Shown here in pieces: positions 125-45,948 of a stretch of DNA of 64,000 nucleotides (position 1 is its first letter; each line of letters begins with the position of its first letter). The stretch comes from a virus, in the IMG/VR virus record IMGVR_UViG_3300038443_002312, positions 51,674 to 115,673 of that record; one strand, 5' to 3'. The position numbers were made by a program, and so were the translations under genes. The notes beneath the pieces are model-generated. The model was not told where the DNA came from and ran no database searches. It worked only from the letters and a program-made list of their open reading frames with translations.

Positions 125-901
125 TCAGGCCGCCCCCGTGTCCATGAACCCGGTGAAGTCCATCCGCCCGGCCAGCCGGGCGAGGATCTTGACCTCCAGC
201 TGCCGGACCCGCTCGCGGGTGATCCCGAAGGTCGCCCCGACCGCGTCCAGGGTCAGCCCCTCGACGAACCGCAGGCGGACGACCTCGGCCTGCCGCGGGT
301 CGAGCCAGCGGTTGACCTCCCGCCAGAACGCCGCCCGGTCCAGGCTGGCGCCGCCCTCCTCGGTCGGGTCCCGCTCGGTGTCGTCCGCGAGCAGGGGCCC
401 GCGCGGCGACCGGGTGAGGTCCCCCTTCGTCGCCCCGATCGGCTGGTCGAGCGAGACCGGGCGGTGGACGTAGCGCATCTCGGTCTCGTTCGGGACCCGG
501 GCCCCGGCGTTCGACTCGCGGGCCCGGAACCGGCGGAGGCGCATCTCGACCCAGTAGGTGGCGTAGGTCAGGTACGACGTCCCGCGGGTCGGGTCGTACC
601 GCCGGGCCGCGAGGACCAGGCCCACGACCGCCTCCTGCCGCATGTCGTCGAGGGCCACCGCCGCCCGGTTCATCTGCCACCACCGGTACGCCAGCCCGAA
701 GGCCAGCGGGCGGAACCGGACGACGACCGCCTCGCGCTCCGGGGCGGTCAGGTAGGGCAGGTCGGCCGCGGGGCCGCCGTCGTCCGCGAGGCGGCCGAGG
801 GCCGCCTCGTCCGCCCCGTCCCACTCGACCGGGGTGGCCCGCCTCAGCGGGGGCGGGTCAGTTCCTCCAGCCGCCGCTCCCCCGCCGGGGTCAGCCGCCA
901 C
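125..901 (-). CDS. Phage-encoded sigma-70 family RNA polymerase sigma factor (start uncertain)
   Basis: Region 2 motif DDMRQEAVVGLVLAARRYDPTRGTSYLTYATYWV, VSLDQPIG, and region 4 HTH LTLDAVGATFGITRERVRQLE; nearest in-frame GTG used as start. Confidence 0.9.
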   Translation of the reverse strand: MAADPGGGAAAGGTDPPPLRRATPVEWDGADEAALGRLADDGGPAADLPYLTAPEREAVVVRFRPLAFGLAYRWWQMNRAAVALDDMRQEAVVGLVLAARRYDPTRGTSYLTYATYWVEMRLRRFRARESNAGARVPNETEMRYVHRPVSLDQPIGATKGDLTRSPRGPLLADDTERDPTEEGGASLDRAAFWREVNRWLDPRQAEVVRLRFVEGLTLDAVGATFGITRERVRQLEVKILARLAGRMDFTGFMDTGAA

Positions 902-1452
902 TTCGCCCCGGTCGACCACCCGGTCAGCTGGAACAGGTGGCGGTGGACCGCCATCGCGTTCCGGGTCGACTGGGCCGACCGGCCGACCGCCCGGGCCAGC
1001 ACGGTCACCTTGGTCGGCCCGCCCGCGAGCAGGCGGATCAGGCGGTCCACGACGTCGCCCCCGGCTGGGACCGGGTCCGGGGCGACGGCTTTTCCCGGTG
1101 GGGCCGCCGGGCGGTCCGGCCGCGGCGGGGGCGGGGCGAAGCAGGGGGCCGGGGGCGGTGGCCCCGGGTCCGGCTGGTCGGGGTCCGGCGCCCGGGCCGG
1201 CAGCGCGTCGACCAGTCGCGGCGGCGCGTCCCGGGCGACGACGACCAGGGCGGCGATGGGTCCGGCCTCGGCGACCACCCGGACGGCCTCCCGGCCCAGC
1301 AGGCGGGCCAGGGCGTTCCGCTGGGCCACGAATTCGGCCAGCCGCGCGTCGGCCGCCGCCAGCGTGTCCGCCGACACCCGCGGCAGGACCGCGAGGAAGG
1401 CGGCCCACGGGTCGCCTTCCGCCGCCGTCAGTTCTGCGGGCGACTCTCCCAC
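844..1452 (-). CDS. Hypothetical protein, possible C-terminal winged HTH
   Basis: 202 aa ORF in operon; C-terminal LIRLLAGGPTKVTVLARAVGRS...WRLTPAG. Confidence 0.6.
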   Translation of the reverse strand: MGESPAELTAAEGDPWAAFLAVLPRVSADTLAAADARLAEFVAQRNALARLLGREAVRVVAEAGPIAALVVVARDAPPRLVDALPARAPDPDQPDPGPPPPAPCFAPPPPRPDRPAAPPGKAVAPDPVPAGGDVVDRLIRLLAGGPTKVTVLARAVGRSAQSTRNAMAVHRHLFQLTGWSTGAKWRLTPAGERRLEELTRPR

Positions 1453-1466
1453 GGCCGATCTCCCCG

Positions 1467-1700
1467 TCAGTTGCTCTCGGTGGCCACCACGGCGTCCGGC
1501 CCGACCGGATCGCCCGCGTCGCGGAACTCCTTCAAAACCGCGAGCATGTCGTGCACCTCGCCCCGCCCGACCACGAGCAGGTAGTCGAACCCGGCCGCCT
1601 GGGCCGTCGGGATGCCGCCGCCGTCGACCGTGACGGTCAGTACGGGTTCCGCGGCCAGCCTCTCCAACCGGGCGACCACGTCCGCGAGCGTTTTCATCAC
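1467..1700 (-). CDS. Hypothetical protein
   Basis: 77 aa ORF with GGAGG upstream, co-oriented with neighbours. Confidence 0.6.
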   Translation of the reverse strand: MMKTLADVVARLERLAAEPVLTVTVDGGGIPTAQAAGFDYLLVVGRGEVHDMLAVLKEFRDAGDPVGPDAVVATESN

Positions 1701-1748
1701 CCCTCCGCCGGCCGGGCCGGCACGTTCACCAGTTCGAGCCGACCCCGG

Positions 1749-2143
1749 TCAGTTCCCGCCGACTCCCGGCCCCGCCCCGCCGAGCCCGCGGACGACCACG
1801 TGCCGCTCGTGCATGTCGCGGAGCACGGCCGCGTCGGCGTCGGACAGGCCCGGGATCTTCGCCGCGTCCACCACCACCCGGACGACGCCCGGCCAAAACG
1901 CTTCCCGCCGCCGGCACAGGGCGACCACGAACGCCAGGTCGGACAGGATCGCGGCCGCCGGGTCGCCCGGCTCGATGTCCTCCAGCCGCCGGGCCAGGTC
2001 GCACGGGTCGACCTCGACCGGGATCGCCTTCAGGGCGTCCGCGAGCCGGCTGTCTCGTACCGGGCGCGCCGGTCGCCCTCACCCCCGACCCCGCCGTCCA
2101 GGGCGTACTCCACGACGACCCGCAGTTTGACCCGCCCCTCCAT
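1749..2143 (-). pseudogene. Frameshifted hypothetical gene (or sequencing error)
   Basis: MEGRVKLRVVVEYALDG...RARYE continues as RLADALKAIPVEVDPCDL... only if one base is added near 2055; the span is 395 nt. Confidence 0.5.
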
Positions 2144-2172
2144 CGCACCCCTCCCGGCCAACCCGTTGGCCA

Positions 2173-2610
2173 CTAGCCCCGACCGTCCCCGGCCGGCGCG
2201 TTCGCCACCCGGACGTCGGGGGTGTTCTCGGCCATCTCCCGGAGGGCGCCCAGGTACCGGGCCCGCTCCTCGGCGTCCGCCGCCCGCCCCGCGACCACCC
2301 CGGCGTCGACCACCAGGACCGCCGGGGATGTCACCCCCGTCGTCCCGCCCCCGGCCAACCGCTGGACCACCGCCGCCGCCGTCAGGACGTCGTCAGCCGC
2401 CTCCCCGGCCGCCTCCATGAGCCCGAGCACCAGGTCCTCGGGCAAGACCTCCTCGCTCGCCAGGGTCGCCACCAGGGCGACCCCGATCGCCCGGCCGATC
2501 GCCTCCCCGGCCGGCCCGTTCACCCCGGCCTGCTCGGTCGTCTCGAACCGCCGGGCCCGCGACCCGTCGTCGAACTCCAGGACGAGCCGGAACTTCACCG
2601 TGTCGCCCAT
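2173..2610 (-). CDS. Hypothetical protein
   Basis: MGDTVKFRLVLEF..., GAGGGAGG SD upstream. Confidence 0.65.
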   Translation of the reverse strand: MGDTVKFRLVLEFDDGSRARRFETTEQAGVNGPAGEAIGRAIGVALVATLASEEVLPEDLVLGLMEAAGEAADDVLTAAAVVQRLAGGGTTGVTSPAVLVVDAGVVAGRAADAEERARYLGALREMAENTPDVRVANAPAGDGRG

Positions 2611-2640
2611 GTCGCCCTCCCTCGCCGCCACTAGGACCAC

Positions 2641-2832
2641 TTACCGCCGGGCCCCGAAGTACCACCGCACGAACTGCACGTAGGCCACCCCGAACCCGGA
2701 CCCCCAGACCGCGAACACGAACACCACCCCGTGCAGGGCCGGCGGCAGGGTCGCGGCCGCGGCACACGCCGCCACCCCCAGGCACCCGAACCCGAAGGCC
2801 AAGGGCTTCAGCCAGTCCCCCGCGTCGTCCAT
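2641..2832 (-). CDS. Small membrane protein (2 TM helices)
   Basis: Two hydrophobic stretches; start overlaps the terL stop. Confidence 0.55.
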   Translation of the reverse strand: MDDAGDWLKPLAFGFGCLGVAACAAAATLPPALHGVVFVFAVWGSGFGVAYVQFVRWYFGARR

Positions 2833-4463
2833 CACGCCGCCTCCAGGTCCGCCCACCCGAGTTTCACCCGCATGTCCGCCGCCGCGATCGCGATCCCCCA
2901 CGCCACCGCCAAATCGTCCAGCAGCGGGGCCGGGGCCGCGAGCGTGTCCGCCTCGATCGTGATGATCTGGTCGTACAGGTCCCGGGAGTGCACCACGCAC
3001 CGGTTCGCCGTGATCCGGCTCGCCGCCCGGTGGTACATGAGTTCCTTACTCCGCCCGTCCGTCGCCCACCCCTTGCCCCCGTCCGGCCCGTTCCCCAGGC
3101 TCGCGTCGTAGTCCCCCCGGTCCCGGACCGTGTGCCACCACGTGATGAACGCGTGCCCGTGGTTGTTCCGCTCCGGCATCACCCGGCACTTCGCCCCGGC
3201 CGGCTTCCGGTACCAGTCGCACAGGGCCGCCGAGTAACTGGCCAGGACCTCCGGCGTGTACTTCCCCCGGACGATCGCCACCTCCTCGCCCGACTCGTCG
3301 TCCACCACCACGAGCGCCGAGTCGCACGACGTCCGCAGGCCCTGGGCCGGGTCCCCGCCGATCGTGTACGCCCGCCCCATCTCCGGCACCCGGTACACCC
3401 GGCACCCCTGCTGGTGCTGGTACCCCGGCAGGGACGCCGGGCACCGGGCCTCGCCCTTCCCGTAGGTGGGGTGGTCCCACGCCGCCTTGGCCCGCGCCAA
3501 GGGCACCGGGTCCAGCGGCACGAAGACGTGCGAGCACCGGTCCTCCGGGAACCGCTTGTCCAACTGCGAGGCCGCCAGGGCCTCCTCGGGCGTGGCCGGG
3601 TACGACTCGTGGACCGCGTCCAGACTGAACGTCGTCGCCTTGCTGTGGGCCACCTGAGCCCGGTACCACGCCCGGGTCCGCTCCGGCCGCGCCCACCACG
3701 GCAGGAAGCACGCCGCCGCCCCCGGCAGGTTCCCCGCCCGGGCCTCCCGCCACAGGTTCTTGAACACGCTCCCCGGGGCCTTCTTGTCCACCCGGGAGAT
3801 CAGGAACAGTTTCCCCCCGTTGTCCACCGTCGGCTTGACCCGGGACAGGAGCACCTCCAGCTTCGGGATCAGGTCGCACTCGTCGATGACGGCGACCGAG
3901 GCCGTGTACGAGTCCCCGGCACTGGTCGGGAAGGCCCGGGCCGTCGCCCCGTTCGCCAGGAACCACTGGTGCCCGCTCTCCCCCTGGAGCTTCCCGCCCC
4001 GGGTGAACGACCCCGCCGGGTGCAGCCACGGCGGCAGGCGGACGAACATCCCCTTCAGCCGCCGCATCATCTCCAGGGCCTCGGTGTCCCGGAGGGAGAA
4101 CAGCAGGGCCGACGTCTGCGGGACGAAGAGGAGCATCCACAGCACGAACGCGAGGGCCAGCCAGGTCAGCCCGATCTGCCGGGGCTTGAGCACGTACACC
4201 TGGGAAAATCGCCTAAACTTCTGGAGCGGGTCGATCTGGGCCGGCCACAACTCGAACCGCACCCAGTCCCCGCCCACCGACTCCCCGAGCGACGTCGTCC
4301 TCGCCGCCACCTCGATACTGCAATACGTGCTGACGAAGTACCACGGGCTCGTCGCGCACTTCGCCGCCTCGGCCGCGACCACCTCCGCGGCCGGCTCGTC
4401 GTCCCACGCCGCCCAACTGGGGCGGACGTACCCCGCCACGGCCTCCTTACCCCGGGTCGCCAT
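2832..4463 (-). CDS. terL: Terminase large subunit
   Basis: Q motif LWPAQ, Walker A VLKPRQIGLTW, Walker B AVIDECD, nuclease IGGDPAQG...CDSALVVVD and DDLAVAWGIA. Confidence 0.9.
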   Translation of the reverse strand: MATRGKEAVAGYVRPSWAAWDDEPAAEVVAAEAAKCATSPWYFVSTYCSIEVAARTTSLGESVGGDWVRFELWPAQIDPLQKFRRFSQVYVLKPRQIGLTWLALAFVLWMLLFVPQTSALLFSLRDTEALEMMRRLKGMFVRLPPWLHPAGSFTRGGKLQGESGHQWFLANGATARAFPTSAGDSYTASVAVIDECDLIPKLEVLLSRVKPTVDNGGKLFLISRVDKKAPGSVFKNLWREARAGNLPGAAACFLPWWARPERTRAWYRAQVAHSKATTFSLDAVHESYPATPEEALAASQLDKRFPEDRCSHVFVPLDPVPLARAKAAWDHPTYGKGEARCPASLPGYQHQQGCRVYRVPEMGRAYTIGGDPAQGLRTSCDSALVVVDDESGEEVAIVRGKYTPEVLASYSAALCDWYRKPAGAKCRVMPERNNHGHAFITWWHTVRDRGDYDASLGNGPDGGKGWATDGRSKELMYHRAASRITANRCVVHSRDLYDQIITIEADTLAAPAPLLDDLAVAWGIAIAAADMRVKLGWADLEAA

Positions 4464-10222: not shown

Positions 10223-11029
10223 TTATGCAGTCGGGGGCGCGGGGCCGGGGGACGGCCCGGGGGGCGGCGGCGGGTCGGGCGGCTGGCCGTCGGGCGGCTG
10301 GTCGTCGGGCGGGGGCGGGAGGTCGGGGACCTTGGGCTCGGCGGCCAGGGCCTCGCGGGCGGCGTCCCGGGCGATCTGGTGCAGTTCGTCCTTCGACGCC
10401 CCGCCGCCCCGGGCCGTGCTCTCGGCCAGGGCCCGGTCCGACGCGTCCGGGTTGTCCAGCCCGTGAATCCGCCGCTCCAGGTCGGTCACCCGGACGAGGG
10501 TCGACACGAAGTCCATGACCGTCATCTGGTCGATCTTCATGGCCAGGCTGTTCGGGGCCTTGTCGTCGAGCACCCGCTGGGCGAACTTGGCGGCCATCGC
10601 CTGCCCGAGTTCGGCCATCCGGGCCTGCCGCTGGACGACGGCCCGGGTCTGGCGGACCTGCTCGGCCGTGGCCTCGGCCGCCATGAACGCGTCGTACGCC
10701 CGGGCCCGCTTGACCCACTCGTAGTCGCCGGCCGTCCGGTACATGGTCGAGTGCACGTACGCCGCGACCCGGGCGTCCTGGTCGACCGCGGCCAGGGACC
10801 CGAACCCGGCCTCGGTCTGCTCCAGGTACGCCCGGGCGGCCTTCGGGATCGTCCGGACGAGCGGGTCGATCCCGAGGTACAGGCGGAACTGGGCGAACGC
10901 CGTGGACGGCTCGTTCGGCTGGATCTGCCACGGGTCCAGGGCCGGGTCGTACGCGAACTTCTGGTTCCGCCGCTTCCGCGGGCCCGGCCGCGGGCGGTTA
11001 CTGGGCAGTCCCTTGGGCACGGCTGTCAC
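10223..11029 (-). CDS. Putative terminase small subunit-like protein
   Basis: PWQIQPNEPSTAFAQFRLYL...WVKRARAYD pattern typical of phage TerS-like proteins, followed by a helical region. Confidence 0.55.
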   Translation of the reverse strand: MTAVPKGLPSNRPRPGPRKRRNQKFAYDPALDPWQIQPNEPSTAFAQFRLYLGIDPLVRTIPKAARAYLEQTEAGFGSLAAVDQDARVAAYVHSTMYRTAGDYEWVKRARAYDAFMAAEATAEQVRQTRAVVQRQARMAELGQAMAAKFAQRVLDDKAPNSLAMKIDQMTVMDFVSTLVRVTDLERRIHGLDNPDASDRALAESTARGGGASKDELHQIARDAAREALAAEPKVPDLPPPPDDQPPDGQPPDPPPPPGPSPGPAPPTA

Positions 11030-11060
11030 TCGCTGGGGTCAGTGCCAACGGGTTGGCGGG

Positions 11061-12002
11061 CTAGAAGTGGGCCTCGCCGCCGCCCGCCGGGGCCCGCGGC
11101 CGTTCGGCCTCGCGGGCCAGGACGGTGGCCTCGCCCGGCTCCGGGGGCGGTTCCGAAACCCCGTCCTGGCCCGGGTCGGGGGGCGGGGCCCAGCCGATAT
11201 CTATGGCGATGCCCCGCCGCATCAGGTCGGCGACCAGGGCCCGGCCCTGGACCCACTTGGAGTTCGGGGACAGGTTGAAGAACGCGCAGAACTTCTCCTT
11301 CTCGTCGGGCGTCTTGAACACGAGCCCGACGTAGAACCCGTCCTTGGCCGCCTCGCCCGAGACGTCCTTGTACTCCTCCTTGGCGGCCTTCATGGCCCGG
11401 ACGGCGTCGGCGTCGGCGGCCGCCGGGTCGTCCTTCTTCGGGAAGATGTGGGCCAGGTCGATCCCGCCCAGGTCGGACACCTGCGAGTCGAGGATGGACT
11501 TGAGCCGGGCGGTGTCGAACCCGAGCAGGTCGACGTCGATCTGCGGGTCGACCAGGACGTCCTTGGCGAGCTTGTTCCAGTCGAAGAACCCCTGGGCCTC
11601 CGGGTTGTTCAGGACGACGTTGAGCTCCTTCTCCTTCGTCTCGTCCAGGTCGACCACCTTGACCTCGACCCCGTACCCCTCCTCCCGGCCGGCCTGCTGG
11701 TCGAGGATCGTCAGCCGCTGGTGCCCGCCGACCAGGTTCCCCGTCCGCTGGTTCCAGATCAGGTTCTCGACCATGCCGAACTCGCGCATGGACTTCTTGA
11801 GCCGGGACTGGCCGGACGTGTCGATCTGGCGGGGGTTGTACGGGGCCTTGTTGATCCGCTCGCGCGGGATCACGGTGGTCTGCCAGCGGGCGAACAGCGG
11901 GTGCAAGGGGGGCGGTTCCGGCCGGGCGGCGGCCCGGGCCGGCTCGGCGGGCTCGGGCGGGGCGGCGGCCTCGCGGGCGGTGGGCGGCTTGGTCTTGGCC
12001 AT
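11061..12002 (-). CDS. ParB/Srx N-terminal domain protein
   Basis: APYNPRQI...LKKSMREFGMVENLIWNQRTGNLVGGHQRL. Confidence 0.88.
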   Translation of the reverse strand: MAKTKPPTAREAAAPPEPAEPARAAARPEPPPLHPLFARWQTTVIPRERINKAPYNPRQIDTSGQSRLKKSMREFGMVENLIWNQRTGNLVGGHQRLTILDQQAGREEGYGVEVKVVDLDETKEKELNVVLNNPEAQGFFDWNKLAKDVLVDPQIDVDLLGFDTARLKSILDSQVSDLGGIDLAHIFPKKDDPAAADADAVRAMKAAKEEYKDVSGEAAKDGFYVGLVFKTPDEKEKFCAFFNLSPNSKWVQGRALVADLMRRGIAIDIGWAPPPDPGQDGVSEPPPEPGEATVLAREAERPRAPAGGGEAHF

Positions 12003-12033
12003 CGGTGCGGGTCGGGGGCTAGGGGTGAAGGGG

Positions 12034-12774
12034 TCAGCGCTTGACCTGGTTCTTGGCCCGCGGGCGGCCGGTCAGGCCGAGCTCGTGGCGGAGCAGTTCG
12101 GCCTCCGCGAACGGGAAGCGGGCGAGCACCTTCTGGTAGTCGGCCGGGTAGTGGTCTCGCAGGAAGACCAGGTCCCCGCCCTCCAGCCCGCCGCCGTACG
12201 AGTGCCCGATGTGGGCGTACTCGGGGGAGAGCGGGATGTCGTGCAGCTTCAGGTAGGTGACGACGTCCGCGTTACTCCACTCCGAGAGCGGGTAGCCGCG
12301 GCACGACACGAGCATGATCCCGTTGGACTGGTTGAGCATCGCCCGCCGCTGGAGGCTGTCGCACTTCTTCAGCCCGTGGGCGAACCACTTGATCCCGGTC
12401 TGCTTGTACACCGCGACCTCGACGTCCCGGATGCGCAGGTCGGGGATGCGGAAGTTCGAGGGCAGGTCGTCGTCCCGGAGGGCGGCGGCGGCCAGCCGGC
12501 GGGACAGGGCCCAGTGGGGCAGGCGGATGATCCGCCCGAGGGCCAGTTTCGCCCCCGCCCGCTCCTCCCAGTACCGCATGTACTGCTCGTGGAAGGACAG
12601 GCCGGGGGTGATGTACATGTAGAACGCGCCGACCCGCTTGAACCACTTCAGACAAAGGTCCATCATGCAGACGGAATCTTTTCCGCAACTGAACCCGACG
12701 TTGATCTCGTCGGTCTCGTAACGAAGCCGCCGCAGGACGTCCTGGGGGTCGGCCTGCGGCGGGACGGGCGGCAT
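12034..12774 (-). CDS. PAPS reductase/PP-loop family protein
   Basis: PP-loop VGFSCGKDSVCMMDL, GLKKCDSLQRR, YPLSEWS. Confidence 0.85.
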   Translation of the reverse strand: MPPVPPQADPQDVLRRLRYETDEINVGFSCGKDSVCMMDLCLKWFKRVGAFYMYITPGLSFHEQYMRYWEERAGAKLALGRIIRLPHWALSRRLAAAALRDDDLPSNFRIPDLRIRDVEVAVYKQTGIKWFAHGLKKCDSLQRRAMLNQSNGIMLVSCRGYPLSEWSNADVVTYLKLHDIPLSPEYAHIGHSYGGGLEGGDLVFLRDHYPADYQKVLARFPFAEAELLRHELGLTGRPRAKNQVKR

Positions 12775-12793
12775 GTTCGTTCACCGGCCGGGA

Positions 12794-13048
12794 TCAGCCG
12801 GTCTCCCCACTCCCCAGCATCCGGTTGACCCGGCGCCGGACCATCCGGCTCTGCGACGGCGTCCTGCCCGGGATGCCGGTCGCGATCCGGCCGGACTCCT
12901 GGACCGACCGGCGGGCGGCGGCGAACCGCTGGCTCGCCGCCTCGGCCCGGTTGACGCCCCCGGGCCCCATCCGCCGCGTCTGCCGGCGGCTCGCCGCGTC
13001 CGCCTTCTTCGTCGGCCGGCTGTTGCCCGGCGTGTTCCGACGCGCCAT
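12794..13048 (-). CDS. Small Arg-rich basic protein
   Basis: MARRNTPGNSRPTKK..., 84 aa, highly basic, directly upstream of the PP-loop gene. Confidence 0.6.
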   Translation of the reverse strand: MARRNTPGNSRPTKKADAASRRQTRRMGPGGVNRAEAASQRFAAARRSVQESGRIATGIPGRTPSQSRMVRRRVNRMLGSGETG

Positions 13049-14197: not shown

Positions 14198-14236
14198 GGG
14201 CGGTCCCTCGGGTGGGTGCCAACGGGTTGGCGGGCG

Positions 14237-15694
14237 TCAGTGCCCGGCCCCGATTGTCTCCGGGTGGTTGGATTTAATCCAGTCCTGGGCCGCCCGGGCG
14301 GCCAGGACGTACTCGCGGGACGGGGTCATGTTGACCTCCTGGCCCGGGCGGTACGTGTCCCAGATGGCCTTGCGGATGTTCGCCGGGAGCTTCTTCCAGC
14401 AGCCGGCGCACCCCCACATGGCCGGCGGGACCTGCCGCCCGCAGCCCGGCCAGTGGCACGTGTGGTCCCGCGTCTGCCCCTGCCGGGTGACGTACTCGAC
14501 CTTGTCCTGCCGCGGGGTGAGGGCCGGGTCCAACTCGCGGAACACCTGGACCAGGAAGGACGCGACGAACGCCTCCAGCCCGCGGGCCCGGTGCTCGGCG
14601 TTCCCGGCCACGTTCAACACCTTGACGTTGTTCGCCCGGACCCAGGCCGCGACCCGGGAGGGACTCGCCGTGGTCGGGAACGAGACGTCCAGGAACGGCT
14701 TCTGGTTAGCCCGGCACAGGTCCGCCGTCAGCCTCTCGCCGGCCGAGTTCCAGTCGGCCGCGAACCGCAGGGTCCCGTCGGAGTCCCGGACGTTCGCGGC
14801 GGTCCGGTCCGGGTACTTCTCCGACTCGTGCTCGCGCATCCCGTACAGGGCCGCGAACTCGGGGTGCGGGCCGTCGAGGGCCGTCCACCCCCGGGGCATC
14901 CACCCCCCGGTGGGCAGGCCGCACGACCGGGCCGCGACCAGCCCGCCCCGGTCCGCCCCGGTCTGGCCGCCGGAGACCACCCTCGCCAGTTTGTGGACCG
15001 CCCGCACGCCCCCGCCCTCCTCGGCTTGTGCCCGGTCCTGCCACCGGACGAAGACCAGTTTGTCGCCCGCCTCGCCCCGCTCCCACGCCCCCCACGGGGC
15101 CCGCCAGTGGGCCTCCCCGAGCCACCGCCAGTGCCGGTCGCCGACCGGGAAGTCCTTGTCGAACGGGTGGGCCGCGTCGTGCACCAGCCAGTGCCGCGGG
15201 GCCGTCGCCGCCGGGTCGGCCTCGCCCCGGTGCGAGCCGGGCTGGACCTGCAAGAAATGGTCGCGGTCGGCCGACCGGGGTTTCAGGTGTTCCGTGAGCC
15301 GGTCCCAGAGGGGCTTGCACCGCCTCCACCACGCCGCGAGCGCGTCGCTCGGCCGGTCCGGGACGATCTTCAGGCGGCCCTCGGCCGGGACCCACTTGAG
15401 CCCGTAGCCGATCCCGTACAGGTCGCGGACGGCCTTCTCGGCCTGGTGGTCGAACGGGCCGGCCGCCTCGGCCGCGGCCGCCTTGTCGCCCGCCGTCTTG
15501 ACCTGCTCCGGCATCCAGCCGGCGGCGGCCAGCCGGGTCAACTCGACGCGGTGGATCGCGACCACCCGGGCCAGCGCGTCCGACACCTCGCCGGAGGCCC
15601 CGGGGGCCGCCGCGAGCGCAAAGGCCCCGTCCTCACCCACCCTCGGGACCAGCCCCCGGTTCAAGCAAATCGCGAACACGCTCTTGGCGTCCAA
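14237..15694 (-). CDS. Multidomain protein with SLOG (MoCo_carrier/cpYpsA-like) domain and C-terminal Cys/His domain
   Basis: VSGGQTGADRGGL, GGWMPRGW, RTAANVRDSDGTL, VLNVAGN; HTCHWPGC...WGCAGCW. Confidence 0.8.
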   Translation of the reverse strand: MDAKSVFAICLNRGLVPRVGEDGAFALAAAPGASGEVSDALARVVAIHRVELTRLAAAGWMPEQVKTAGDKAAAAEAAGPFDHQAEKAVRDLYGIGYGLKWVPAEGRLKIVPDRPSDALAAWWRRCKPLWDRLTEHLKPRSADRDHFLQVQPGSHRGEADPAATAPRHWLVHDAAHPFDKDFPVGDRHWRWLGEAHWRAPWGAWERGEAGDKLVFVRWQDRAQAEEGGGVRAVHKLARVVSGGQTGADRGGLVAARSCGLPTGGWMPRGWTALDGPHPEFAALYGMREHESEKYPDRTAANVRDSDGTLRFAADWNSAGERLTADLCRANQKPFLDVSFPTTASPSRVAAWVRANNVKVLNVAGNAEHRARGLEAFVASFLVQVFRELDPALTPRQDKVEYVTRQGQTRDHTCHWPGCGRQVPPAMWGCAGCWKKLPANIRKAIWDTYRPGQEVNMTPSREYVLAARAAQDWIKSNHPETIGAGH

Positions 15695-16124: not shown

Positions 16125-16964
16125 TCACCCGACCTTGCTCAGGGCGGCGGCGACCCGCTCGCGGGCGGCGGCCGCGTACTCCGGAACCCGCTCGACGCCC
16201 ACGCACCGCCGCCCGCCGCCCTCGCGGACGACCGCCTCCCCGGTCGTCCCGGACCCGTAGAACGGGTCGAGGACGAGCCCGCCCGGCGGGCACAGGTACC
16301 GGACCCACCACCGCACGAGGTCGAGCGGGGTCTCGGCCCCGTGCCGCCCGGCCTGGGTGTTCGGGACCGGGATCAGGTTCGGCGGGGTCACCCCGCCCCG
16401 GCGAACGGCGGCCGCGTAGCACGCCGCCTTGTCCACGCTCTGCCCGCTCGGCCCGGCCACCGCCACCCGGGCCCGGTGGTACTGGCGCTCCCCGGCCGAC
16501 CGGGCCGACTCGGCCCACAGGACCGCGCCCTGGGCGCGGTAGCAGTCGGGCGGGCCGAGCCAGACGCACGCCTTGACGCTCGGCCGCAGGAGCCCGGCGG
16601 CCGGGGCCCCGCCGACCGGCAGGCAGGCGAAGTTCCACCACCACGCGTCCTGGACCAGCCCCCACCGCTCGGCCCAGTCGAGCATGAACCGCAGCCACCA
16701 CGTCCGCATCCGCCCGACCCGCTCGCTGTTCGGCTGGATCACGAAGACCGCCGACCCGGTCGGCCTGAGCACCCGCCGGCACTCGGGGACGACCACGTCC
16801 ATGAGGGCGAACCACTCGGCCTCCGTCCACCGCCCGTAGTCCCGGTCGACCTCCGGGTACGGCGGGTCGCAGACCACGCAGTCGAACAGCCCGGCCGGGC
16901 ACTCGCCCAGCACCGCCCGGGAGTCGCCGCAGATCGCCCACACCGGCCCGCCGCCGTCGAGCAT
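16125..16964 (-). CDS. N4/N6 DNA methyltransferase (beta class)
   Basis: CDPPY precedes VLDPFYGSGTTG. Confidence 0.9.
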   Translation of the reverse strand: MLDGGGPVWAICGDSRAVLGECPAGLFDCVVCDPPYPEVDRDYGRWTEAEWFALMDVVVPECRRVLRPTGSAVFVIQPNSERVGRMRTWWLRFMLDWAERWGLVQDAWWWNFACLPVGGAPAAGLLRPSVKACVWLGPPDCYRAQGAVLWAESARSAGERQYHRARVAVAGPSGQSVDKAACYAAAVRRGGVTPPNLIPVPNTQAGRHGAETPLDLVRWWVRYLCPPGGLVLDPFYGSGTTGEAVVREGGGRRCVGVERVPEYAAAARERVAAALSKVG

Positions 16965-17294: not shown

Positions 17295-17318
17295 GTGAGC
17301 CCCCTGCCAACTGGTTGG

Positions 17319-18125
17319 CTAGTCGAACACCCGTTCCCGCTCCATCCGCCGCAGGCACGCCTCGGGCGACTCCCCGCGGCGGAGTTCGTAACTCGCCCCC
17401 ACGCACCCGCCCTTCCAGCTGCCCGTCCGCTCGCCGACCTCGTCGGAGAACGCCACGTCGATGTACGCCCGGGTGCGTTTGGGGAACCACAGCCCGGCCT
17501 TCCAGAACAGCCGCCAGCACCAGGTCCGCCGCTCGGCCGTGACGGCCGCCTCGCGGACCTGGACCTCCCCGGACTGGAGCGTGTAGACGTAGGCGAACGT
17601 CTGCCGGTACGCGCCTTCGGGCTCGTCGTGGTACGGGTAGCGGAGCCCGTCCCGGGCCTGGTCGCCGCGGACGAGTTTGCCGCCGCGGAGGTAGCGGTGC
17701 CACCGCCCCAGCCGCGGCCGCCACGCCCGGGTCACTTCCTCGGTCACGACGAACCGCCCGTCGGCGAGCATCACCTCCCGCCGGACGTGCTCCATCGCCC
17801 ACGGCAGGTTCACGATCTTGCACCGGTCCCGCCAGTTCAGGTGCAGGCACCGGGATTCGGGGTCGAGCGTGAACCCCCACGTGTCCAGCATCGGGTCGCG
17901 GGGCGGCGTGCCCGCCCGCCGCAGGTCGACCCACAGGCAGAAGAGGTGCAGCACCCACCGCGGATCGTCGTCGAACTTGTGCAGGGCGACCGACCACCGC
18001 CAGGACGCGACCCGGACCCGGCCCCAGAACGTCCCGCGGGCCCCGAACCGGTACTCGCGGCCGTCGCGGGTCGCCGCCCGCACCCGGGCCGGCCAACTCA
18101 GGAGTCGCTTGATCGCCCCGAACAT
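17319..18125 (-). CDS. Hypothetical protein
   Basis: MFGAIKRLL..., 268 aa, Trp-rich. Confidence 0.65.
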   Translation of the reverse strand: MFGAIKRLLSWPARVRAATRDGREYRFGARGTFWGRVRVASWRWSVALHKFDDDPRWVLHLFCLWVDLRRAGTPPRDPMLDTWGFTLDPESRCLHLNWRDRCKIVNLPWAMEHVRREVMLADGRFVVTEEVTRAWRPRLGRWHRYLRGGKLVRGDQARDGLRYPYHDEPEGAYRQTFAYVYTLQSGEVQVREAAVTAERRTWCWRLFWKAGLWFPKRTRAYIDVAFSDEVGERTGSWKGGCVGASYELRRGESPEACLRRMERERVFD

Positions 18126-20896: not shown

Positions 20897-20929
20897 ACCG
20901 CCGCCCTCCGGGACCCGCCAACCCGTTGG

Positions 20930-22291
20930 CTACAGCTTCTCTTCCAGGTGCCGCAGGTGTTCGGCGGCCAGCCGCTTGAGGGTCGCGATGGCCGGGTCCC
21001 CGGCCTTGTCCAGGGCCTTGTACTGGTGGTCGCCGACGTGCCCGGTCCCGTGGCACGTCTCGCACCCCTTCGAGAACTTGCCGAGCCGGCCGTGCTCCTG
21101 GGCGCACACCGGGCACTGGGCGTACGGCCGGGCCTCGGCCAGGGTCGCGGCCATCTCGGCGAGCCCCGGGCACGAGTAGACCGTCTCCAACTCGCCGTCC
21201 TGCTCCTTGGGCCGGGCCTTGAGCAGATTCGGGTGCTTGTCGGCCGCCCGGGCCAGGCGATCCCCGCCCGGGGCGGCGGCCAGGGCCGACACCGCCTTCA
21301 TCGCCTGGCGGACCAGCCCGAGGGCCCGGTCGAACTCCTCCCGGGCCTTGAACTGCTCGATCAGCCTGTCCGACCCGAGCGGGTGGTCGGCCTCGTCGGT
21401 CTCGCCCCGGGACAGCTGGATCACCGCCCGGGCCGCGGCCGCGACGGCGATCTTCCCGTCGTCGAGCTTCTTCGCGATCTCCTCGGCCTTGGCCTTCTTC
21501 TCCGGGGACAGTTCGTCGGACTTCGCGGCGGCGAACACGAGCCGGGCCTGGCGGAGGGACTCCGGGTTGGTGTTCAGGGCCTCGGCCACCCGCTCCCGCT
21601 TGGCCTTGCCGCCGACCGGGGCCCGCTGGTACACCCGGTCGAGTTCCTCCTTCCGCTTGACCTTGTCCGACCACTTCGGGTCGACCCGGTCGTCGTTCTC
21701 GGCCATCTCGGCCGCGAGCACCCAGGCCAGCCGGTCGGCCTGCTCCAGGTCGGACGTGTCGACGATCCGGGCCGGGATCGTGTCGAACTTCAACTCGTCC
21801 CGGACCGCGACCGTCCGCCGCCCGCCGGCCGTCAGCCGGTAGGACCCGTCGGCGTCGGCCGGCTCGACCACGATCGCGTGCATCAGCCCGTTCTTGCCGA
21901 TCGACCCGGCCAGGTCCCGGATGCCGGGCATGTCCGACCGGTACCGGTTTTCGAGCCTCACCTTGTCGACCGGGATGTTCACGACCGGGAAGTTGCCCCA
22001 GTGCTTCTTGACCCAGTCGGTCGCCTCGACCCCCTTGACCTCGCCCGGGGCCGCCGCCGGGGCGGCGCCGTCCGCCGGGACGGCCGCCGGGGCCGGGGCC
22101 GCCTCCTCCGGCGTCCTGGCCTTCGGGGCCTTGCCCCCCTTGCCCGGCTTGGCGGCCTTCGCCTTGCCGGCCTTGCCCTTCTTGTCCGGCTTGGCGCCGG
22201 CCTTCCCGCCCTTGCCGCCGCCCTTGAGCGCCCCGAGGGCGTCCCTGACCATCCCCTTCCCGTCCTTCTTCGCCTTCGTCGCCGTGGTCAT
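20930..22291 (-). CDS. ParB/Spo0J-like protein with Lys/Ala-rich N-terminus and C-terminal Zn finger
   Basis: LAGSIGKNGLMHAIVV...LTAGGRR...AENDDR; HTH-like ERVAEALN; CPVC/CETC. Confidence 0.8.
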   Translation of the reverse strand: MTTATKAKKDGKGMVRDALGALKGGGKGGKAGAKPDKKGKAGKAKAAKPGKGGKAPKARTPEEAAPAPAAVPADGAAPAAAPGEVKGVEATDWVKKHWGNFPVVNIPVDKVRLENRYRSDMPGIRDLAGSIGKNGLMHAIVVEPADADGSYRLTAGGRRTVAVRDELKFDTIPARIVDTSDLEQADRLAWVLAAEMAENDDRVDPKWSDKVKRKEELDRVYQRAPVGGKAKRERVAEALNTNPESLRQARLVFAAAKSDELSPEKKAKAEEIAKKLDDGKIAVAAAARAVIQLSRGETDEADHPLGSDRLIEQFKAREEFDRALGLVRQAMKAVSALAAAPGGDRLARAADKHPNLLKARPKEQDGELETVYSCPGLAEMAATLAEARPYAQCPVCAQEHGRLGKFSKGCETCHGTGHVGDHQYKALDKAGDPAIATLKRLAAEHLRHLEEKL

Positions 22292-22400: not shown

Positions 22401-23291
22401 TCAGAAGTTCGTCCACAGGCAGTGTACTAACTTGCGCTTGGCATTACCGCCGGCCGCCGCGTTCGGGACCTGCTTCTCGTGCCGGGTCCAGTGGTGCAGC
22501 CGGGCGACGTCGTCGTACAGGTCCGACCGCAGGCCGGACAGGGCGAAGTGGGCGTTCTTGAGCCCGCCGAGCGTGTCGAGCAGGGCGACGTGCTGGGCCC
22601 GGGTGTACTCGAACCGGTACACGTCCGGGGCGGCCCGGGTCTCGGCCAGCCACGGCGGGTCGAGGTAAAAGACCGCCCCGGGGACGTCGTACTTGAGGCA
22701 CACGGCCGGGGCGTCCCGGTTGAGGACGAGGACCCGGATCAGGCGGGCGCGGACCTCGGGCAGGCGGTCGACCGCCCCGAGCAGGGCCGACACCTGCTCG
22801 TTCATCCCGCCGCGGAGGCGGGACTTGGTCAGCCCGGCGAACGCTTCCCCCGTGTCCGTCCGCCCGGCGAGACACTGCCGGCAGCGGACGAAGTAGCTGA
22901 CGGCGGCGCCGACGTGCGGGGCGGGGAACGTCCCCTTCTCGGCCAGGAGCCGCCGGTACTCGTTGCTCGCGGCGACCGCCCGCTCCCAGGCGGGCTCGGA
23001 GAACGGGGTCAGCTGGGCCCGGCGGAGGAAGTCGAGGAAGACCGCCTCCGGCCCGCCGAGGACGGCCCAGAAGTTGGTCAGTTCGCCGTCCAGGTCGTTG
23101 ACCACCTCGGACACGCCCTCGGGGTCGAGGGCGAAGAGGACCGACAGGCCCCCGGCGTACGGCTCGACGTACGTGGTCCGCGGGACCCGGCCGACGACCC
23201 CGGCGATCCACTGGGCGTTATAGTTCTGACCACCGTGAGTCTTTAAGGTAGTCTTGATTCGCGTGTATTTGGGCTTGGTCTTAGTCGGCAT
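22401..23291 (-). CDS. Dam-like (D12 class) DNA adenine methyltransferase
   Basis: YVEPYAGGLSV, EVVNDLDGELTNFW, FYLDPPW. Confidence 0.88.
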   Translation of the reverse strand: MPTKTKPKYTRIKTTLKTHGGQNYNAQWIAGVVGRVPRTTYVEPYAGGLSVLFALDPEGVSEVVNDLDGELTNFWAVLGGPEAVFLDFLRRAQLTPFSEPAWERAVAASNEYRRLLAEKGTFPAPHVGAAVSYFVRCRQCLAGRTDTGEAFAGLTKSRLRGGMNEQVSALLGAVDRLPEVRARLIRVLVLNRDAPAVCLKYDVPGAVFYLDPPWLAETRAAPDVYRFEYTRAQHVALLDTLGGLKNAHFALSGLRSDLYDDVARLHHWTRHEKQVPNAAAGGNAKRKLVHCLWTNF

Positions 23292-23835
23292 CGGGGGCCT
23301 CGTGGGCGATGCGGATGCGGCAGGCACAGCGGTAGGCCGGGGCCTGGAGGAACACCCACCGGACCCGCGGGTCGCGGCCGGTGTCCTTGACCCCGAGCCA
23401 GGCCGCCACGGTGTCTTTCACGGCCTTGAACGCCCGGGGTAAATTCTCGTCTTCGTCTAACTGCTTGCCGCCGAGCCGGGTCATCGTGACGACGGCCGGG
23501 AGCGGGAACGTCATGACCGGGAGGGCGGCCCGGACGGCCTCCTTGACCGCCGTCTTGCGGCCGATCTTCGCCCGGAGGCCGCCGCCGACCGCGGACCCGG
23601 CGTTCGCCTCGGACACCAGCCGGACGTTGACGTCGACCTCGACCACCAGGCGGGCCAGGGGCGGGCGGGCGGGCGGCGGCGTCTTGCCCCGGCGGGCCGG
23701 GGCGGGGGCCGGAACTCCCCCGCCCGCGGTCGCCGCCGGGCCCGCCGCCGGGGGAGAACCCCCGACGGTGACGGTCGCGGTCCCGCGCTTCAGGGCCGCG
23801 ATCATCTCGTCCACGTTCCCCCGGATGGTCGGCAC
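23281..23835 (-). CDS. RusA-like Holliday junction resolvase
   Basis: SEAN...VTMTRLGGKQLDEDENL..AFKAVKD.VAAWLGVKD. Confidence 0.65.
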   Translation of the reverse strand: MPTIRGNVDEMIAALKRGTATVTVGGSPPAAGPAATAGGGVPAPAPARRGKTPPPARPPLARLVVEVDVNVRLVSEANAGSAVGGGLRAKIGRKTAVKEAVRAALPVMTFPLPAVVTMTRLGGKQLDEDENLPRAFKAVKDTVAAWLGVKDTGRDPRVRWVFLQAPAYRCACRIRIAHEAPDAD

Positions 23836-25992: not shown

Positions 25993-26420
25993 TAGAACCG
26001 GCCGGCGTCCTGGAGTTCTTGCAGCCGGTCCTTGAGGGCCCGGGCGGCGGTCGCCTCCCCGGCGAGGACGGCCCGGGCCAGGGCGGCGGCGACGGCGTCC
26101 GGGTCCGGCCGCGGGGCCAGGCGGGCGGCCTGGTGGGCGCGGACGGCGGCCAGCAAGCGGTCGGCGTCGTGCCGGGAAACGACTTTGGGGAGGGTAACCC
26201 CGGGCGTGTCGGAGGTCCCGTCCGGGACGTACGTCCCCATCCACACGCCGGTCGCGTCGTAGATCAGGGAGACGGCGGCGGCCGGGTTGTTGAGCCCGGG
26301 GGAGCCGTCGGTCTCGCACCGGAACGGCTCCCACTCGTACCACCGGTCGACGAGGGACCGGCAGACCAGGTCGACGGCGTCGGGGGCGGCCGCGGGCTTG
26401 CGGCCGAAGAGAAAGGCCAT
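25992..26420 (-). CDS. Hypothetical protein
   Basis: 142 aa ORF. Confidence 0.6.
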   Translation of the reverse strand: MAFLFGRKPAAAPDAVDLVCRSLVDRWYEWEPFRCETDGSPGLNNPAAAVSLIYDATGVWMGTYVPDGTSDTPGVTLPKVVSRHDADRLLAAVRAHQAARLAPRPDPDAVAAALARAVLAGEATAARALKDRLQELQDAGRF

Positions 26421-26429
26421 CGGGCGTCC

Positions 26430-26840
26430 TCACTGGTGGTCGTCGGGGTCGGCCGCCGGCTCCTGGACGCCCCAGATCGCGGCGGCGGCCGCCTGTTCGC
26501 ACGCGCGGGAACAGAACGCCGTCTTCGTCTCGAAATCGGGGCGGAGGGCCTTCATGGGGGTGCCGCACCAGCCGCACGGGCCCTCGACGAGTTGGGCCTC
26601 CAGCCAGGCGGCCTCGGCGGCCCGGGCGGCCTCCCGCTGGCCGGCCTCCCACTCGTCGTGCGCCGCCACGCACACCGGGGAGCAGCACCGGTTCCGCGGG
26701 TCGGACTCGTCCTTCGGAACCCGAACGCCGGCCAAACACACGGGGCAGGTGTCGTCGACCACCTCGGCCGGGTCCGGGTCAACGTCGTCCGGCCCGAGCC
26801 CCGCATCCCGCACGTGGTCCGCCCACTCGCGCCAGCCCAT
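26430..26840 (-). CDS. Cys-rich (double Zn-finger) protein
   Basis: CPVC..CCSPVC; CGWCG..FCSRAC. Confidence 0.65.
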   Translation of the reverse strand: MGWREWADHVRDAGLGPDDVDPDPAEVVDDTCPVCLAGVRVPKDESDPRNRCCSPVCVAAHDEWEAGQREAARAAEAAWLEAQLVEGPCGWCGTPMKALRPDFETKTAFCSRACEQAAAAAIWGVQEPAADPDDHQ

Positions 26841-26854
26841 GGCAGTCCTCCCGG

Positions 26855-27652
26855 TTAGTCGATCTCCCCGTCGTCCTCCCGGCCGAGCAACCGGACGGGC
26901 GGTTCGGCGGGAGGAGTCTCGGCCGCCGCCCGGCGGGTGTTAATCCGGGTCCACAGGGCACCGGCGGTCCGGGCCAGGGCCCGGAACTCTTCGCCGGGGT
27001 GCTCGGCGAGGAAGGCCCGCGCCCGGGCCGAGTCGGGCCCGCCCGACTCGTTCATGACCTCAGCGTACTGCCCCAAGAGTTTACCCACGGGCGGGGGCTC
27101 GTCCGCGTGGGCGGCAACCGCGGCCCGGATCTCCGCCCGGGCCGCGACCACCCGCGGGTCGGTCGGGTCCACCCCGACCGGGAGCACGTCCGCGGCCAGC
27201 CGCCAGAACGCCGAAACCCCCCGGCCGCCGCCGAACTCCCCGGACTCCTTCGCGGCCTCGAACGTCCCCAGCCAGTCGGCGGTGATGTCCGGGTCGCCGC
27301 CCCGCTCGCGGTCTTCCCGGGGGCCCAGGAACGCGTCCCGCTCGGCCCGGGTGTCGAACAGGACCATCTGCCCGTTCTCGACGATCCGGGCGTTCCAGTA
27401 CGCCCCGGCCCCGCTCATGTCCACGTGACACATCCGCGGGATCTCCGCGCACCGCCCGTACCCGCGGAGGGTGAACGGCCGCCAGTCCAGCGGGGGCAGG
27501 GCGGCCTCGGGCACGACCCGGGCCCGGCACTCGCCCTCCTCGCCCACAAATTCGACGACCGTGACCGGGCTCGGGACGGCGGGGGCCGCCCCGGGCAGGT
27601 CGGCCACCGCCCCGGGCAGGTAATTCCCTTTGTACGCGTGCAGTTTTCTCAT
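26855..27652 (-). CDS. Hypothetical protein
   Basis: 265 aa ORF. Confidence 0.6.
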   Translation of the reverse strand: MRKLHAYKGNYLPGAVADLPGAAPAVPSPVTVVEFVGEEGECRARVVPEAALPPLDWRPFTLRGYGRCAEIPRMCHVDMSGAGAYWNARIVENGQMVLFDTRAERDAFLGPREDRERGGDPDITADWLGTFEAAKESGEFGGGRGVSAFWRLAADVLPVGVDPTDPRVVAARAEIRAAVAAHADEPPPVGKLLGQYAEVMNESGGPDSARARAFLAEHPGEEFRALARTAGALWTRINTRRAAAETPPAEPPVRLLGREDDGEID

Positions 27653-34163: not shown

Positions 34164-35195
34164 TCAGCGGTCGACGACGACCAGGCACGTCTTGACGCCG
34201 GTCGAGCGGAACGCCCCCTCGAACGCGCCGTCCGGGAGGTCGTACCGCTCCCCGCCGACCTCGTCGAACCACTCGCGGAACTCCGCCGCCTTCCGGTCCG
34301 CCCGGAAGAACGGGCCGGTCGACATGACGGACACGAGTCGTCCGCCGGGCCGCAACAGGGCGTGTGCGTGGCGGACGTGCAGGATGTCCTGGCCACTTTC
34401 AAAGGGGGGATTGGCAAGAACCCGATCGTACAACTCGGCGCGGGCCGTCCAGCTTCTCCCGGTAGCGTCCATTTCAGATGGCAACTGTTCCGGGGCTGGC
34501 AACTGAAGGAAGTCCTCACCGATCACCGTGTGCCCCTTCGCGGTCAGGATCTCCCGCAATTGGTGGTTGATCTCGCACACGTCGACCGCCGCGTCGGGGA
34601 ACGCCCCGCGGACGGCGTCGGCGATGTCCCCCTTGCCGGCCGACGGTTCCAGGACCCGCAACCCGGTCTTCCCGAGGACGTCCGCCAGGTCGATCATCCG
34701 GGCGATGACCGGGGCCGGGGTCGGGAAGAACCCGGGGATCTGGGCGAACCGGACGCGGGCCTCCAGGTCGCGGATCTTCGCGACCCGCGCCGCCTCTTCC
34801 TGCGCCGCCTTGTCCTCCGGCGACTGCCGGCCGTCCAGCCACTCCCGCAGGGCGACGGCCGTCTTGCTCGTGTCGTGGAACTCCCCGGTGTCGCGGAGCG
34901 AGTAGTGCCCGCCGGAATGGTCGACGCGGGTGGCCAGCATGGCCAGGAGTTCCTTCTTGCCGGCGATCCCGCCCAGGGCGGGCGGGCACCGGCCGGCCTC
35001 GTGCGCGTCGGCCAGCTTGAGGAGCGCGCCCCGGACCCGGGCCAGGTGGTCGGCCTCGATCCGGGCCGACGCGGCCTGCATCTGCCGCTTCGGGGTGTTG
35101 TCGAGGCGGGGGTGGCGCTTGTCGGCGATTTGCTTGGCCAGCGTCTCGGCCAGCTTGCGGAACCGGGGGGCAATGCTCGCGGTCTTCGGTGGCAT
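34164..35195 (-). CDS. N6-adenine-type methyltransferase with N-terminal extension
   Basis: GFFPTP, VLEPSAGKGDIAD, ANPPF. Confidence 0.88.
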   Translation of the reverse strand: MPPKTASIAPRFRKLAETLAKQIADKRHPRLDNTPKRQMQAASARIEADHLARVRGALLKLADAHEAGRCPPALGGIAGKKELLAMLATRVDHSGGHYSLRDTGEFHDTSKTAVALREWLDGRQSPEDKAAQEEAARVAKIRDLEARVRFAQIPGFFPTPAPVIARMIDLADVLGKTGLRVLEPSAGKGDIADAVRGAFPDAAVDVCEINHQLREILTAKGHTVIGEDFLQLPAPEQLPSEMDATGRSWTARAELYDRVLANPPFESGQDILHVRHAHALLRPGGRLVSVMSTGPFFRADRKAAEFREWFDEVGGERYDLPDGAFEGAFRSTGVKTCLVVVDR

Positions 35196-36855: not shown

Positions 36856-36922
36856 GTGTGGACCTCCGGAACACGTTCAAGACAGGCGACCGGACGGCGG
36901 TAAGGCGGTGCGGTCGGTGCGG

Positions 36923-37165: not shown

Positions 37166-37226
37166 GTGTGGACCTCGCGAGGAAGAGAACAGGACCGGCC
37201 GGCGGACTTCTCCGCCGGCCGGCCGA

Positions 37227-37475: not shown

Positions 37476-37539
37476 GTGCGGACCTCGCGAGGATAGGACC
37501 AGGCGGCCGACCGGCAGTGAGGCACGGCCGGCCGATCGG

Positions 37540-45934: not shown

Positions 45935-45948
45935 CCGCGAGGTCCGCT

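Follow-up and report, generated by a model that had tools for sequence, protein, structure and literature searches.

Within a 64,000-nucleotide stretch of viral DNA (hereafter the window), which is the right-hand part of a single 115,673-bp virus record (IMG/VR record IMGVR_UViG_3300038443_002312, positions 51,674 to 115,673; GC 74%), four co-oriented minus-strand genes at positions 10223-13048 encode, in order of transcription, a basic protein, a PP-loop enzyme of the PAPS-reductase fold, a ParB-like protein and a small-terminase (TerS)-like protein. This cluster represents a module widespread among phages, which is made up of a basic glycine-tailed peptide, the PP-loop enzyme and the ParB-like protein, followed by the terminase. 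A gene for an ASCH-family protein, a candidate fourth partner of the module, accompanies it in all 13 complete module-carrying genomes examined, an association that is new here; in the window that gene lies in a zone nearly cleared of the words GGG and CCC. A layered explanation is proposed tentatively, at somewhat less than an even chance of being right: that this conserved module, standing at the head of the packaging genes, acts as a late writer on DNA with the ASCH protein as its eraser. The features on which the argument turns are as follows.

12794-13048, minus strand: basic open reading frame (ORF), 84 aa, Arg-rich, isoelectric point ~12
12034-12774, minus strand: PAPS-reductase-fold PP-loop ATP pyrophosphatase, 246 aa (PF01507, E 4e-9; phrog_2302 and phrog_424, E 1e-13)
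11061-12002, minus strand: ParB/Srx-like protein, 313 aa (phrog_9353, E 3.5e-49; phrog_620, E 2.7e-23)
10223-11029, minus strand: TerS-like protein, 268 aa (phrog_6299, E 1.3e-9)
2832-4463, minus strand: large terminase, TerL (phrog_5989, E 2e-20; phrog_2, E 7e-16)
45850-46410, plus strand: ASCH-domain ORF, 186 aa (PF04266, 21.8 bits; octapeptide GFKPYENR)
36754-46672: GGG/CCC-free zone, 9.9 kb, 66% GC, 5 GGG/CCC against ~717 expected

A packaging-linked gene module in phages

The minus strand carries almost every gene of the window, and the genes of the cluster are separated by gaps of only 19, 31 and 31 bp. A preliminary description of this DNA had reported four tightly linked, co-oriented genes and had named their products; all four are present on the minus strand, and the names were right. 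The TerS-like protein has no homology to the TerS proteins of related loci, as is usual for TerS.

A profile search of 1.8 billion representative sequences returned 471 clusters of the PP-loop protein at E<=1e-30 and 1,232 at E<=1e-10, and nearly all of the best 150 clusters listed are stand-alone proteins of ~220-300 aa. In related IMG/VR loci (21-41% identity, 34-64% GC) a ParB-like gene directly follows the PP-loop gene in about 45 of 57 cases, and in those loci that were checked TerS and then TerL come after ParB within ~2.5 kb. The succession of PP-loop gene and ParB gene recurs in a metagenome-assembled Clostridia genome, and the annotated order PP-loop, ParB-like, terminase is found in Lactobacillus phage LR1 and Riemerella phage RAP44. 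Homologues of the PP-loop protein with 54-61% identity occur on contigs of up to 67 kb, and a metagenome scan gave a single relative (36%). For the phage as a whole, a TerL-based scan for close relatives found none, and comparison with known phages at the DNA level gave no match. The earlier proposal that a PP-loop enzyme and a ParB protein act on DNA in connection with packaging is strengthened by this synteny (peptide, PP-loop, ParB, TerS and TerL in those ~45 loci and in cultured phages). As a qualification, the window TerL does not adjoin the cluster; 5.8 kb separate it from the TerS-like gene upstream of it, a stretch occupied by genes for a LexA-like helix-turn-helix protein, an Erf/Rad52 annealase and four other proteins.

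The phage and prophage pairs annotated as "PAPS reductase family protein" and "ParB-like nuclease" (gp33/gp32 of RAP44, and their counterparts in LR1) belong to the same families, with 27-37% identity to the window enzyme. Their order is the same and they too precede TerS, TerL and portal; in all likelihood they are copies of this module. They differ from the window cluster in that the window TerL is set apart behind recombination genes and the window ASCH gene is 33 kb away rather than adjacent. No paper was found in the literature that measures the function of a PP-loop/ParB pair, and the PP-loop gene is usually annotated there as a sulfur "auxiliary metabolic gene". The literature also contains a statement, of untraced origin, that evasion of Dnd is aided by a phage PAPS reductase.

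In at least 31 related loci an ORF of 26-87 aa, with 20-38% Lys+Arg and almost no acidic residues, directly precedes the PP-loop gene and ends 0-60 bp from its start; its product has a tail of the form RR[KR]S-x-GG-x-GG or poly-G. In the window the 84-aa basic ORF occupies the same place, across the 19-bp gap, and has GGAGG 6 nt before its ATG (position 13048); a public gene caller gives a shorter, 58-aa form that starts at 12970. Its product is Arg-rich, has almost no acidic residues and carries the tail ...RRRVNRMLGSGETG, which ends in LGSGETG. Its position, composition and G-ended tail make it a candidate for the module's peptide.

Upstream, the cluster is flanked by genes for a primase and for a protein with a circularly permuted YpsA (cpYpsA) SLOG domain; the latter (14237-15694, minus strand, 485 aa; PF12694, E 2e-38), two genes upstream of the cluster, also has a C-terminal phrog_18063 domain. 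Both were considered as parts of the module and rejected, as neither is conserved alongside it in relatives. The gap between the ParB-like and TerS-like genes holds one copy of a repeated palindrome:

11044-11057: palindrome GCCAAC-N2-GTTGGC, within the 31-bp ParB-like/TerS-like gap

The palindrome GCCA(A/G)-N4-TTGGC, mostly in the form GCCAAC-N2-GTTGGC, has 33 sites in the window against 0.19 expected; further copies lie, for example, at 2157-2170, 14218-14231, 17306-17319, 20917-20930 and 42494-42507, and several copies that were checked are intergenic. A possible binder is a canonical ParB_N protein (20930-22291) that has a GGRR box and, at its C-terminus, a zinc-finger-like CxxC pair; alternatively, the palindromes could be transcript hairpins. 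Outside the window, at genome positions 515-3322 of the record (L060:515-3322), a 935-aa protein has a heptosyltransferase-like domain (TIGR02193, E 2e-11) and, in its C-terminal part, a region resembling methyltransferases (phrog_6608, E 3e-9); it may glycosylate virion proteins.

The PP-loop enzyme, its ParB-like neighbour and the ASCH partner

The enzyme is an ATP pyrophosphatase and is neither a sulfate-assimilation nor a phosphorothioation enzyme. Its PP-loop, SCGKDS, is intact, and in an alignment of 14 homologues S29, G31, K32 and D33 (motif SxGKDS) are invariant, as are P86-H87, D139-S140 and R143-R144; the same alignment contains no conserved cysteine cluster and no C-terminal redox cysteine, C41 alone being nearly invariant. 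The predicted structure (mean per-residue confidence, pLDDT, 87) matches FAD synthase, APS and PAPS reductases, LarE, CysD, TilS and GMP synthase alike, with Z scores of 11-13, so that the substrate is not readable from the fold. A fold shared with the PAPS reductase CysH and with CysD is thereby confirmed (Z 11.6-12.8); the NCBIfam scores are 18 bits for CysH against a cut-off of 154 and 22-30 bits for CysD against cut-offs of 195-413, and the enzyme reaches the cut-off of no NCBIfam family. Pfam finds PF01507 alone in the 246 residues, with no second domain of the DUF3440 type.

The preliminary description had likened the cluster to the Dnd and Ssp phosphorothioation systems, an analogy that does not hold: among PADLOC profiles there is no match to DndC, SspD or DndB, the sole match being a 27-residue BrxP PP-loop (E 1e-4), and the set of cysteines expected of such enzymes is not conserved. 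No dndA/iscS, dndD or dndE gene was found among the ~35 window and genome proteins scanned (no whole-genome search was made with Dnd profiles), and no cysteine desulfurase, DndD or DndE is present among the genes annotated. DndC, SspD and BrxP are DNA-directed PP-loop ATP pyrophosphatases of the superfamily to which the window enzyme belongs, and DndC has a ParB-superfamily partner, DndB; the window enzyme differs from them in having no profile match, no cysteine dyad and no Fe-S ligands, and in being accompanied instead by a candidate glycine-tailed peptide and an ASCH protein. IbrA and IbrB of E. coli ECOR-9 are likewise a PAPS-reductase-fold and ParB-like pair, encoded in a prophage-related island. 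IbrA is longer and has a second, C-terminal domain, DUF3440. Membership of the window enzyme in the IbrA family is not supported, as no DUF3440 domain was found and no NCBIfam cut-off is reached; the comparison with IbrA/IbrB is one of domain make-up.

A closer parallel for the use of a peptide comes from Cap9 with its CD-NTase (deazaguanylation in type IV CBASS, a bacterial anti-phage system) and from QatC with QatB, in which the PP-loop enzyme works on the flexible, glycine-bearing N-terminus of an adjacently encoded partner (PMC13279940). Cap9 and QatC are QueC-family enzymes of host defence with a zinc site, and place 7-deazaguanine on an N-terminal glycine amine, whereas the window enzyme has the PAPS-reductase fold, is phage-borne and stands beside a peptide whose conserved glycines are C-terminal. 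The window enzyme has no sequence match to the QueC family, and its similarity to Cap9 (chain 9nto_B) is confined to the PP-loop (E 0.002), with no cysteine cluster.

The ParB-like protein has an N-terminal domain (residues ~41-135; model pLDDT >90) with NPR and GGHQR motifs that are invariant in 15 sequences. Foldseek matches this domain to pNOB8 ParB-N, to ParB bound to CDP or CTPgS, and to Noc (E 6e-5 to 4e-4), and Pfam gives no match at E<0.01, ParB_N included. Domains of this type also occur in fusions with DNA methyltransferases of phages (phrog_498, E 2e-25; PADLOC MTase_II, E 8e-20). For the C-terminal half the model is helical but of low confidence, and no clear match to it was found. 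When the enzyme and the ParB-like protein were each entered as an alignment, prediction of a complex gave an interface score (ipSAE) of 0.63, against 0.01 for the best of 3 controls; 58 of 80 solved complexes, but just 2 of 110 mismatched pairs, attain that mark. Contacts agreed between runs to at least 47%, and the partner pLDDT was at least 67. In the predicted contact the ParB helix 190-211, with the nearly invariant L201 and K205, packs onto the enzyme face that bears the invariant P86-H87. The modelling supports binding of the two proteins to each other. No fused ParB/PP-loop protein was found for this subfamily, which is weak evidence.

The fourth partner was sought with a profile built from module-associated ASCH proteins. 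Every one of the 13 complete genomes with the module yields a single ASCH gene (E 2e-11 to 1e-67), and seven related module-free genomes yield none at E<1e-5. Over the 58 loci the profile matches in 30, where the gene is usually tail-to-tail with ParB on the opposite strand, and Pfam confirmed the ASCH assignment in 8 of 10 cases tested. The regularity of this association marks an ASCH-family hydrolase, recognized by profile, as a candidate for a regular partner of the module. This genome contains a single match, the ORF at 45850-46410 (E 7e-11), which is on the plus strand, opposite to the module, at the right edge of the GGG/CCC-free zone and 33 kb from the module; its octapeptide G-x-K-x-x-E-x-R is intact (GFKPYENR). 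The domain and the octapeptide are common to the window ORF, the module-linked ORFs and the ASCH amidohydrolases E. coli YqfB, TthASCH and EOLA1, whose known substrates are free N4-acylcytidine and the N4-acetylcytidine of tRNA. Proteins of this family hydrolyse N4-acylcytosine compounds and strip the N4-acetyl group from tRNA cytidine by means of the Lys and Glu of the octapeptide (PMC6972931; bioRxiv 10.64898/2026.02.27.708502).

Trinucleotide-free zones and the module

The GGG-free zone reported in the preliminary description is real by the counts given above, and no second one exists in the 115,673-bp record. Within it GGA is not depleted, and CCGG/GGCC is enriched. The zone spans the first 8 kb of a long leftward transcription unit together with a short divergent rightward unit, and its contents include the ASCH gene and a gene for a 475-aa DUF932 protein (40626-42053, minus strand; E 4e-50). 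The presence of the ASCH partner gene inside the zone gives some indirect support to a link between module and zone. DUF932 was also considered as a companion of such zones and set aside: relatives that are 42-49% identical, on two IMG/VR contigs (L065 and L066), lie in DNA of normal GGG/CCC content with no purge. Two adenine methyltransferases, one of the PF01555 family (16125-16964, minus strand, motif DPPY) and one Dam-like of the D12 class (22401-23327, minus strand, motif DPPW), were rejected as writers on GGG/CCC because the word contains no adenine. An ORF resembling S-adenosylmethionine-dependent methyltransferases (34164-35195) lies just left of the zone.

Purged zones of another word occur in two of nine other complete or near-complete module-carrying genomes. 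These two (G001 and G002) are IMG/VR gut phages with zones purged of GGA and TCC, and a comparison group was formed of phages that are related to G001 by their large terminase and unrelated to the phage of the window; the correlation of module and zone rests on this one other group. Its purged zones are these.

G001:5238-8027 and 26338-27580, both strands: GGA/TCC-purged zones
G002:22006-25021 and 42082-43683, both strands: GGA/TCC-purged zones
G011, G012 and G013, both strands: GGA/TCC-purged zones likewise

Among the loci of this group, a GGA/TCC-free stretch of 1.2-1.7 kb (score >20) separates ParB from TerL in five of the seven that carry the module. Of the module-free loci whose upstream sequence is complete none has such a stretch, the highest score being 9.8; two loci truncated upstream, whose module status is unknown, have it as well. 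When only complete genomes are compared, GGA/TCC-purged zones are present in 5/5 with the module and 0/7 without. A distal purged zone of 2-4.2 kb, situated between the lysis genes and the early regulators, is found in all five module genomes, and the zone between ParB and TerL in four. The depth of the purge is illustrated by one zone with 2 GGA/TCC observed against 76 expected from local base composition, and sequences resembling ribosome-binding sites inside the zones avoid GGAG. The gene content of the ParB-TerL stretch differs by sublineage, and the stretch is purged in each. In a pan-genome comparison, only a few families follow the module exactly, occurring in each of the five genomes with it and in none of the seven without: the PP-loop protein, ParB, the ORF that precedes this pair, a 69-aa ORF, and two genes of the distal zone, one of which encodes an ASCH protein (PF04266, E 4e-8 to 2e-9) and the other a 306-aa protein. 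Tblastn searches of the present genome with tracking genes of the gut group (306-aa, 133-aa and 69-aa) found no homologue. Both of the purged words, GGG/CCC and GGA/TCC, contain CC/GG.

A possible late DNA writer and the alternatives

In the layered explanation the ParB-like subunit would, late in infection, hold the PP-loop enzyme on phage DNA through its conserved helix, and the enzyme would spend ATP to activate the terminal glycine carboxylate of the peptide, or another carboxylate. The activated group would pass to DNA, most plausibly to the exocyclic amine of a cytosine that lies within a short word, CCC/GGG in this phage. Early in the next infection the ASCH protein would strip the mark; the early region, which has to be read while the DNA is still marked and which includes the ASCH gene, would stay free of the word and appear as the GGG/CCC-free zone. 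The genes with their conservation and order, the predicted PP-loop/ParB contact, the association with ASCH and the zone itself are shown; what the enzyme acts on, by which chemistry and when, and whether the zone is a result of it, is what we infer. The most specific form of the proposal, which is unlikely as it stands, is that the C-terminal glycine of the basic peptide, a ribosomal product, is adenylated and joined to cytosine N4 (in CCC here, in TCC in the gut group), so that packaged DNA would carry peptidyl- or glycylcytosines, which ASCH would strip after injection, with the first-needed genes lying in the word-free zone. An action of ASCH on DNA, or on a peptidyl or glycyl adduct, would be presupposed.

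Several observations weigh against this explanation. No local 3- or 4-mer purge is present in 7/9 of the other complete or near-complete module-carrying genomes, so that the module is not sufficient for a zone; likewise the regions around the ASCH gene lack any trinucleotide purge in 24/25 other module loci, and the module thus does not in general bring a word-free zone with it. In the gut-phage group, module genomes fall in three places of the TerL tree, interleaved with module-free genomes rather than in one clade, so that the five-versus-seven contrast amounts to about three independent contrasts, not twelve, with only ~3 independent lineages per side; moreover the distal zone of that group is a shared homologous module, and co-inheritance could therefore explain part of the correlation. 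In the window 24 kb separate the zone from the cluster and, unlike in the gut-phage group, there is no purge between ParB and TerL. The Pfam score of the window ASCH ORF barely passes (21.8 against a cut-off of 21.2 bits). The basic ORF has no detectable sequence homologue and no significant similarity to the peptides of relatives, and its product ends in GSGETG and not in GG, the canonical RRKS-x-GG-x-GG ending being absent. There is no chemical evidence of DNA modification in this or related phages. Known PP-loop conjugases act on a protein N-terminal amine and not on a C-terminal carboxylate, and we know of no PP-loop enzyme that adenylates the C-terminus of a peptide.

The correlation across phages that the preliminary description had proposed as a check thus appears, on a small scale, within the TerL-related group; most other module genomes have no zone. 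Its suggestion that the cluster writes a GGG mark gains from the ASCH partner in the zone and from the co-occurrence of module and zones in that group, and loses by the unpurged genomes and ASCH regions; it is circumstantially supported but unproven, and should be taken as doubtful.

The main rival, possible though not probable, is that module and zone are unrelated. The zone would then be an anti-defence region that enters the cell or is expressed first, and it would have lost GGG/CCC because a target containing this word is recognised by a host system before the phage has made its counter-measures; the module would act otherwise at packaging. This fits with a zone that holds DUF932, a family typical of the leading regions of conjugative plasmids, and begins a long leftward transcription unit, and with the majority of module-carrying genomes that have no zone. 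Relatives also avoid palindromic restriction sites genome-wide (GATC, CTAG, GGCC, GTAC), which places these phages under restriction pressure. Against it, no defence system known to us has a bare, strand-symmetric trinucleotide as its target; the module's ASCH partner sits in the zone; and in another phage group zones accompany the module and are absent from its module-free relatives. As a separate observation, many module phages (loci L002-L059) are without one 4-bp palindrome (GATC, CTAG, GGCC, GTAC or ACGT) across 10-20 kb; this is ordinary restriction-site avoidance, and it suggests that the module gives no blanket protection from restriction.

Rather unlikely is a role for the module as a late regulator of transcription or packaging, or as an accessory, that leaves no covalent mark on DNA, with the peptide condensing DNA or assisting the terminase. 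Its fixed place directly upstream of TerS and TerL is what such a regulator would occupy, and the ParB N-domain has a fold like that of CTP-binding ParB, Noc and KorB, which act as DNA clamps and regulators; in addition, prophage eib genes are reportedly activated by genes from the IbrAB island. The invariant catalytic PP-loop, however, implies ATP-dependent chemistry, pure regulation leaves the conserved glycine tail and the hydrolase partner unexplained, and the extra domain of IbrA is absent here.

It is improbable that the enzyme instead modifies a protein or a small molecule, by attaching the glycine-tailed peptide to a phage or host protein in the manner of ubiquitin or Pup or by making a peptide-nucleotide, with ParB as scaffold or NTPase and possibly in the service of anti-defence. 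The peptide is short, disordered and G-ended like the tails of Pup and ubiquitin-like proteins, Cap9 and QatC are PP-loop enzymes that act on protein termini (PMC13279940), and a 2026 paper places PAPS-reductase-like genes in Aca-regulated candidate anti-defence operons; but the ParB domain is of the type fused to DNA methyltransferases, the ASCH family acts on nucleobases, and the late position of the module is unlike that of typical early anti-defence genes. Finally, Dnd/Ssp-like phosphorothioation or an auxiliary gene of sulfur assimilation (cysH) is highly improbable: the PAPS-reductase fold beside a ParB-like neighbour recalls DndC/DndB and underlies the usual literature annotation, but the enzyme matches no DndC, SspD or DndB profile, lacks the conserved cysteines that a persulfide or an Fe-S cluster would need, scores far below the CysH and CysD cut-offs (18-30 bits against 154-413) and is paired with ParB, before the terminase, in most related loci.

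The annotation of this enzyme as a sulfur-metabolism "auxiliary metabolic gene" is almost certainly wrong, and it concerns many phages, since the PP-loop/ParB pair is found in Lactobacillus, Riemerella, Pasteurella and Bacteroides phages among others, with Pasteurella phage Pm86 and Bacteroides phage BS-TP2 as cultured carriers besides LR1 and RAP44. If the late-writer explanation is true, a peptide-based DNA mark with a dedicated eraser would be a new class of nucleic-acid modification, and it would explain kilobase zones in phage genomes that are cleared of one trinucleotide on both strands, for which we know of no restriction or CRISPR pressure that accounts. Even without the link to the zones, a conserved four-part system that heads the packaging operon is a well-defined target for experiments, and cultured phages that carry it exist.

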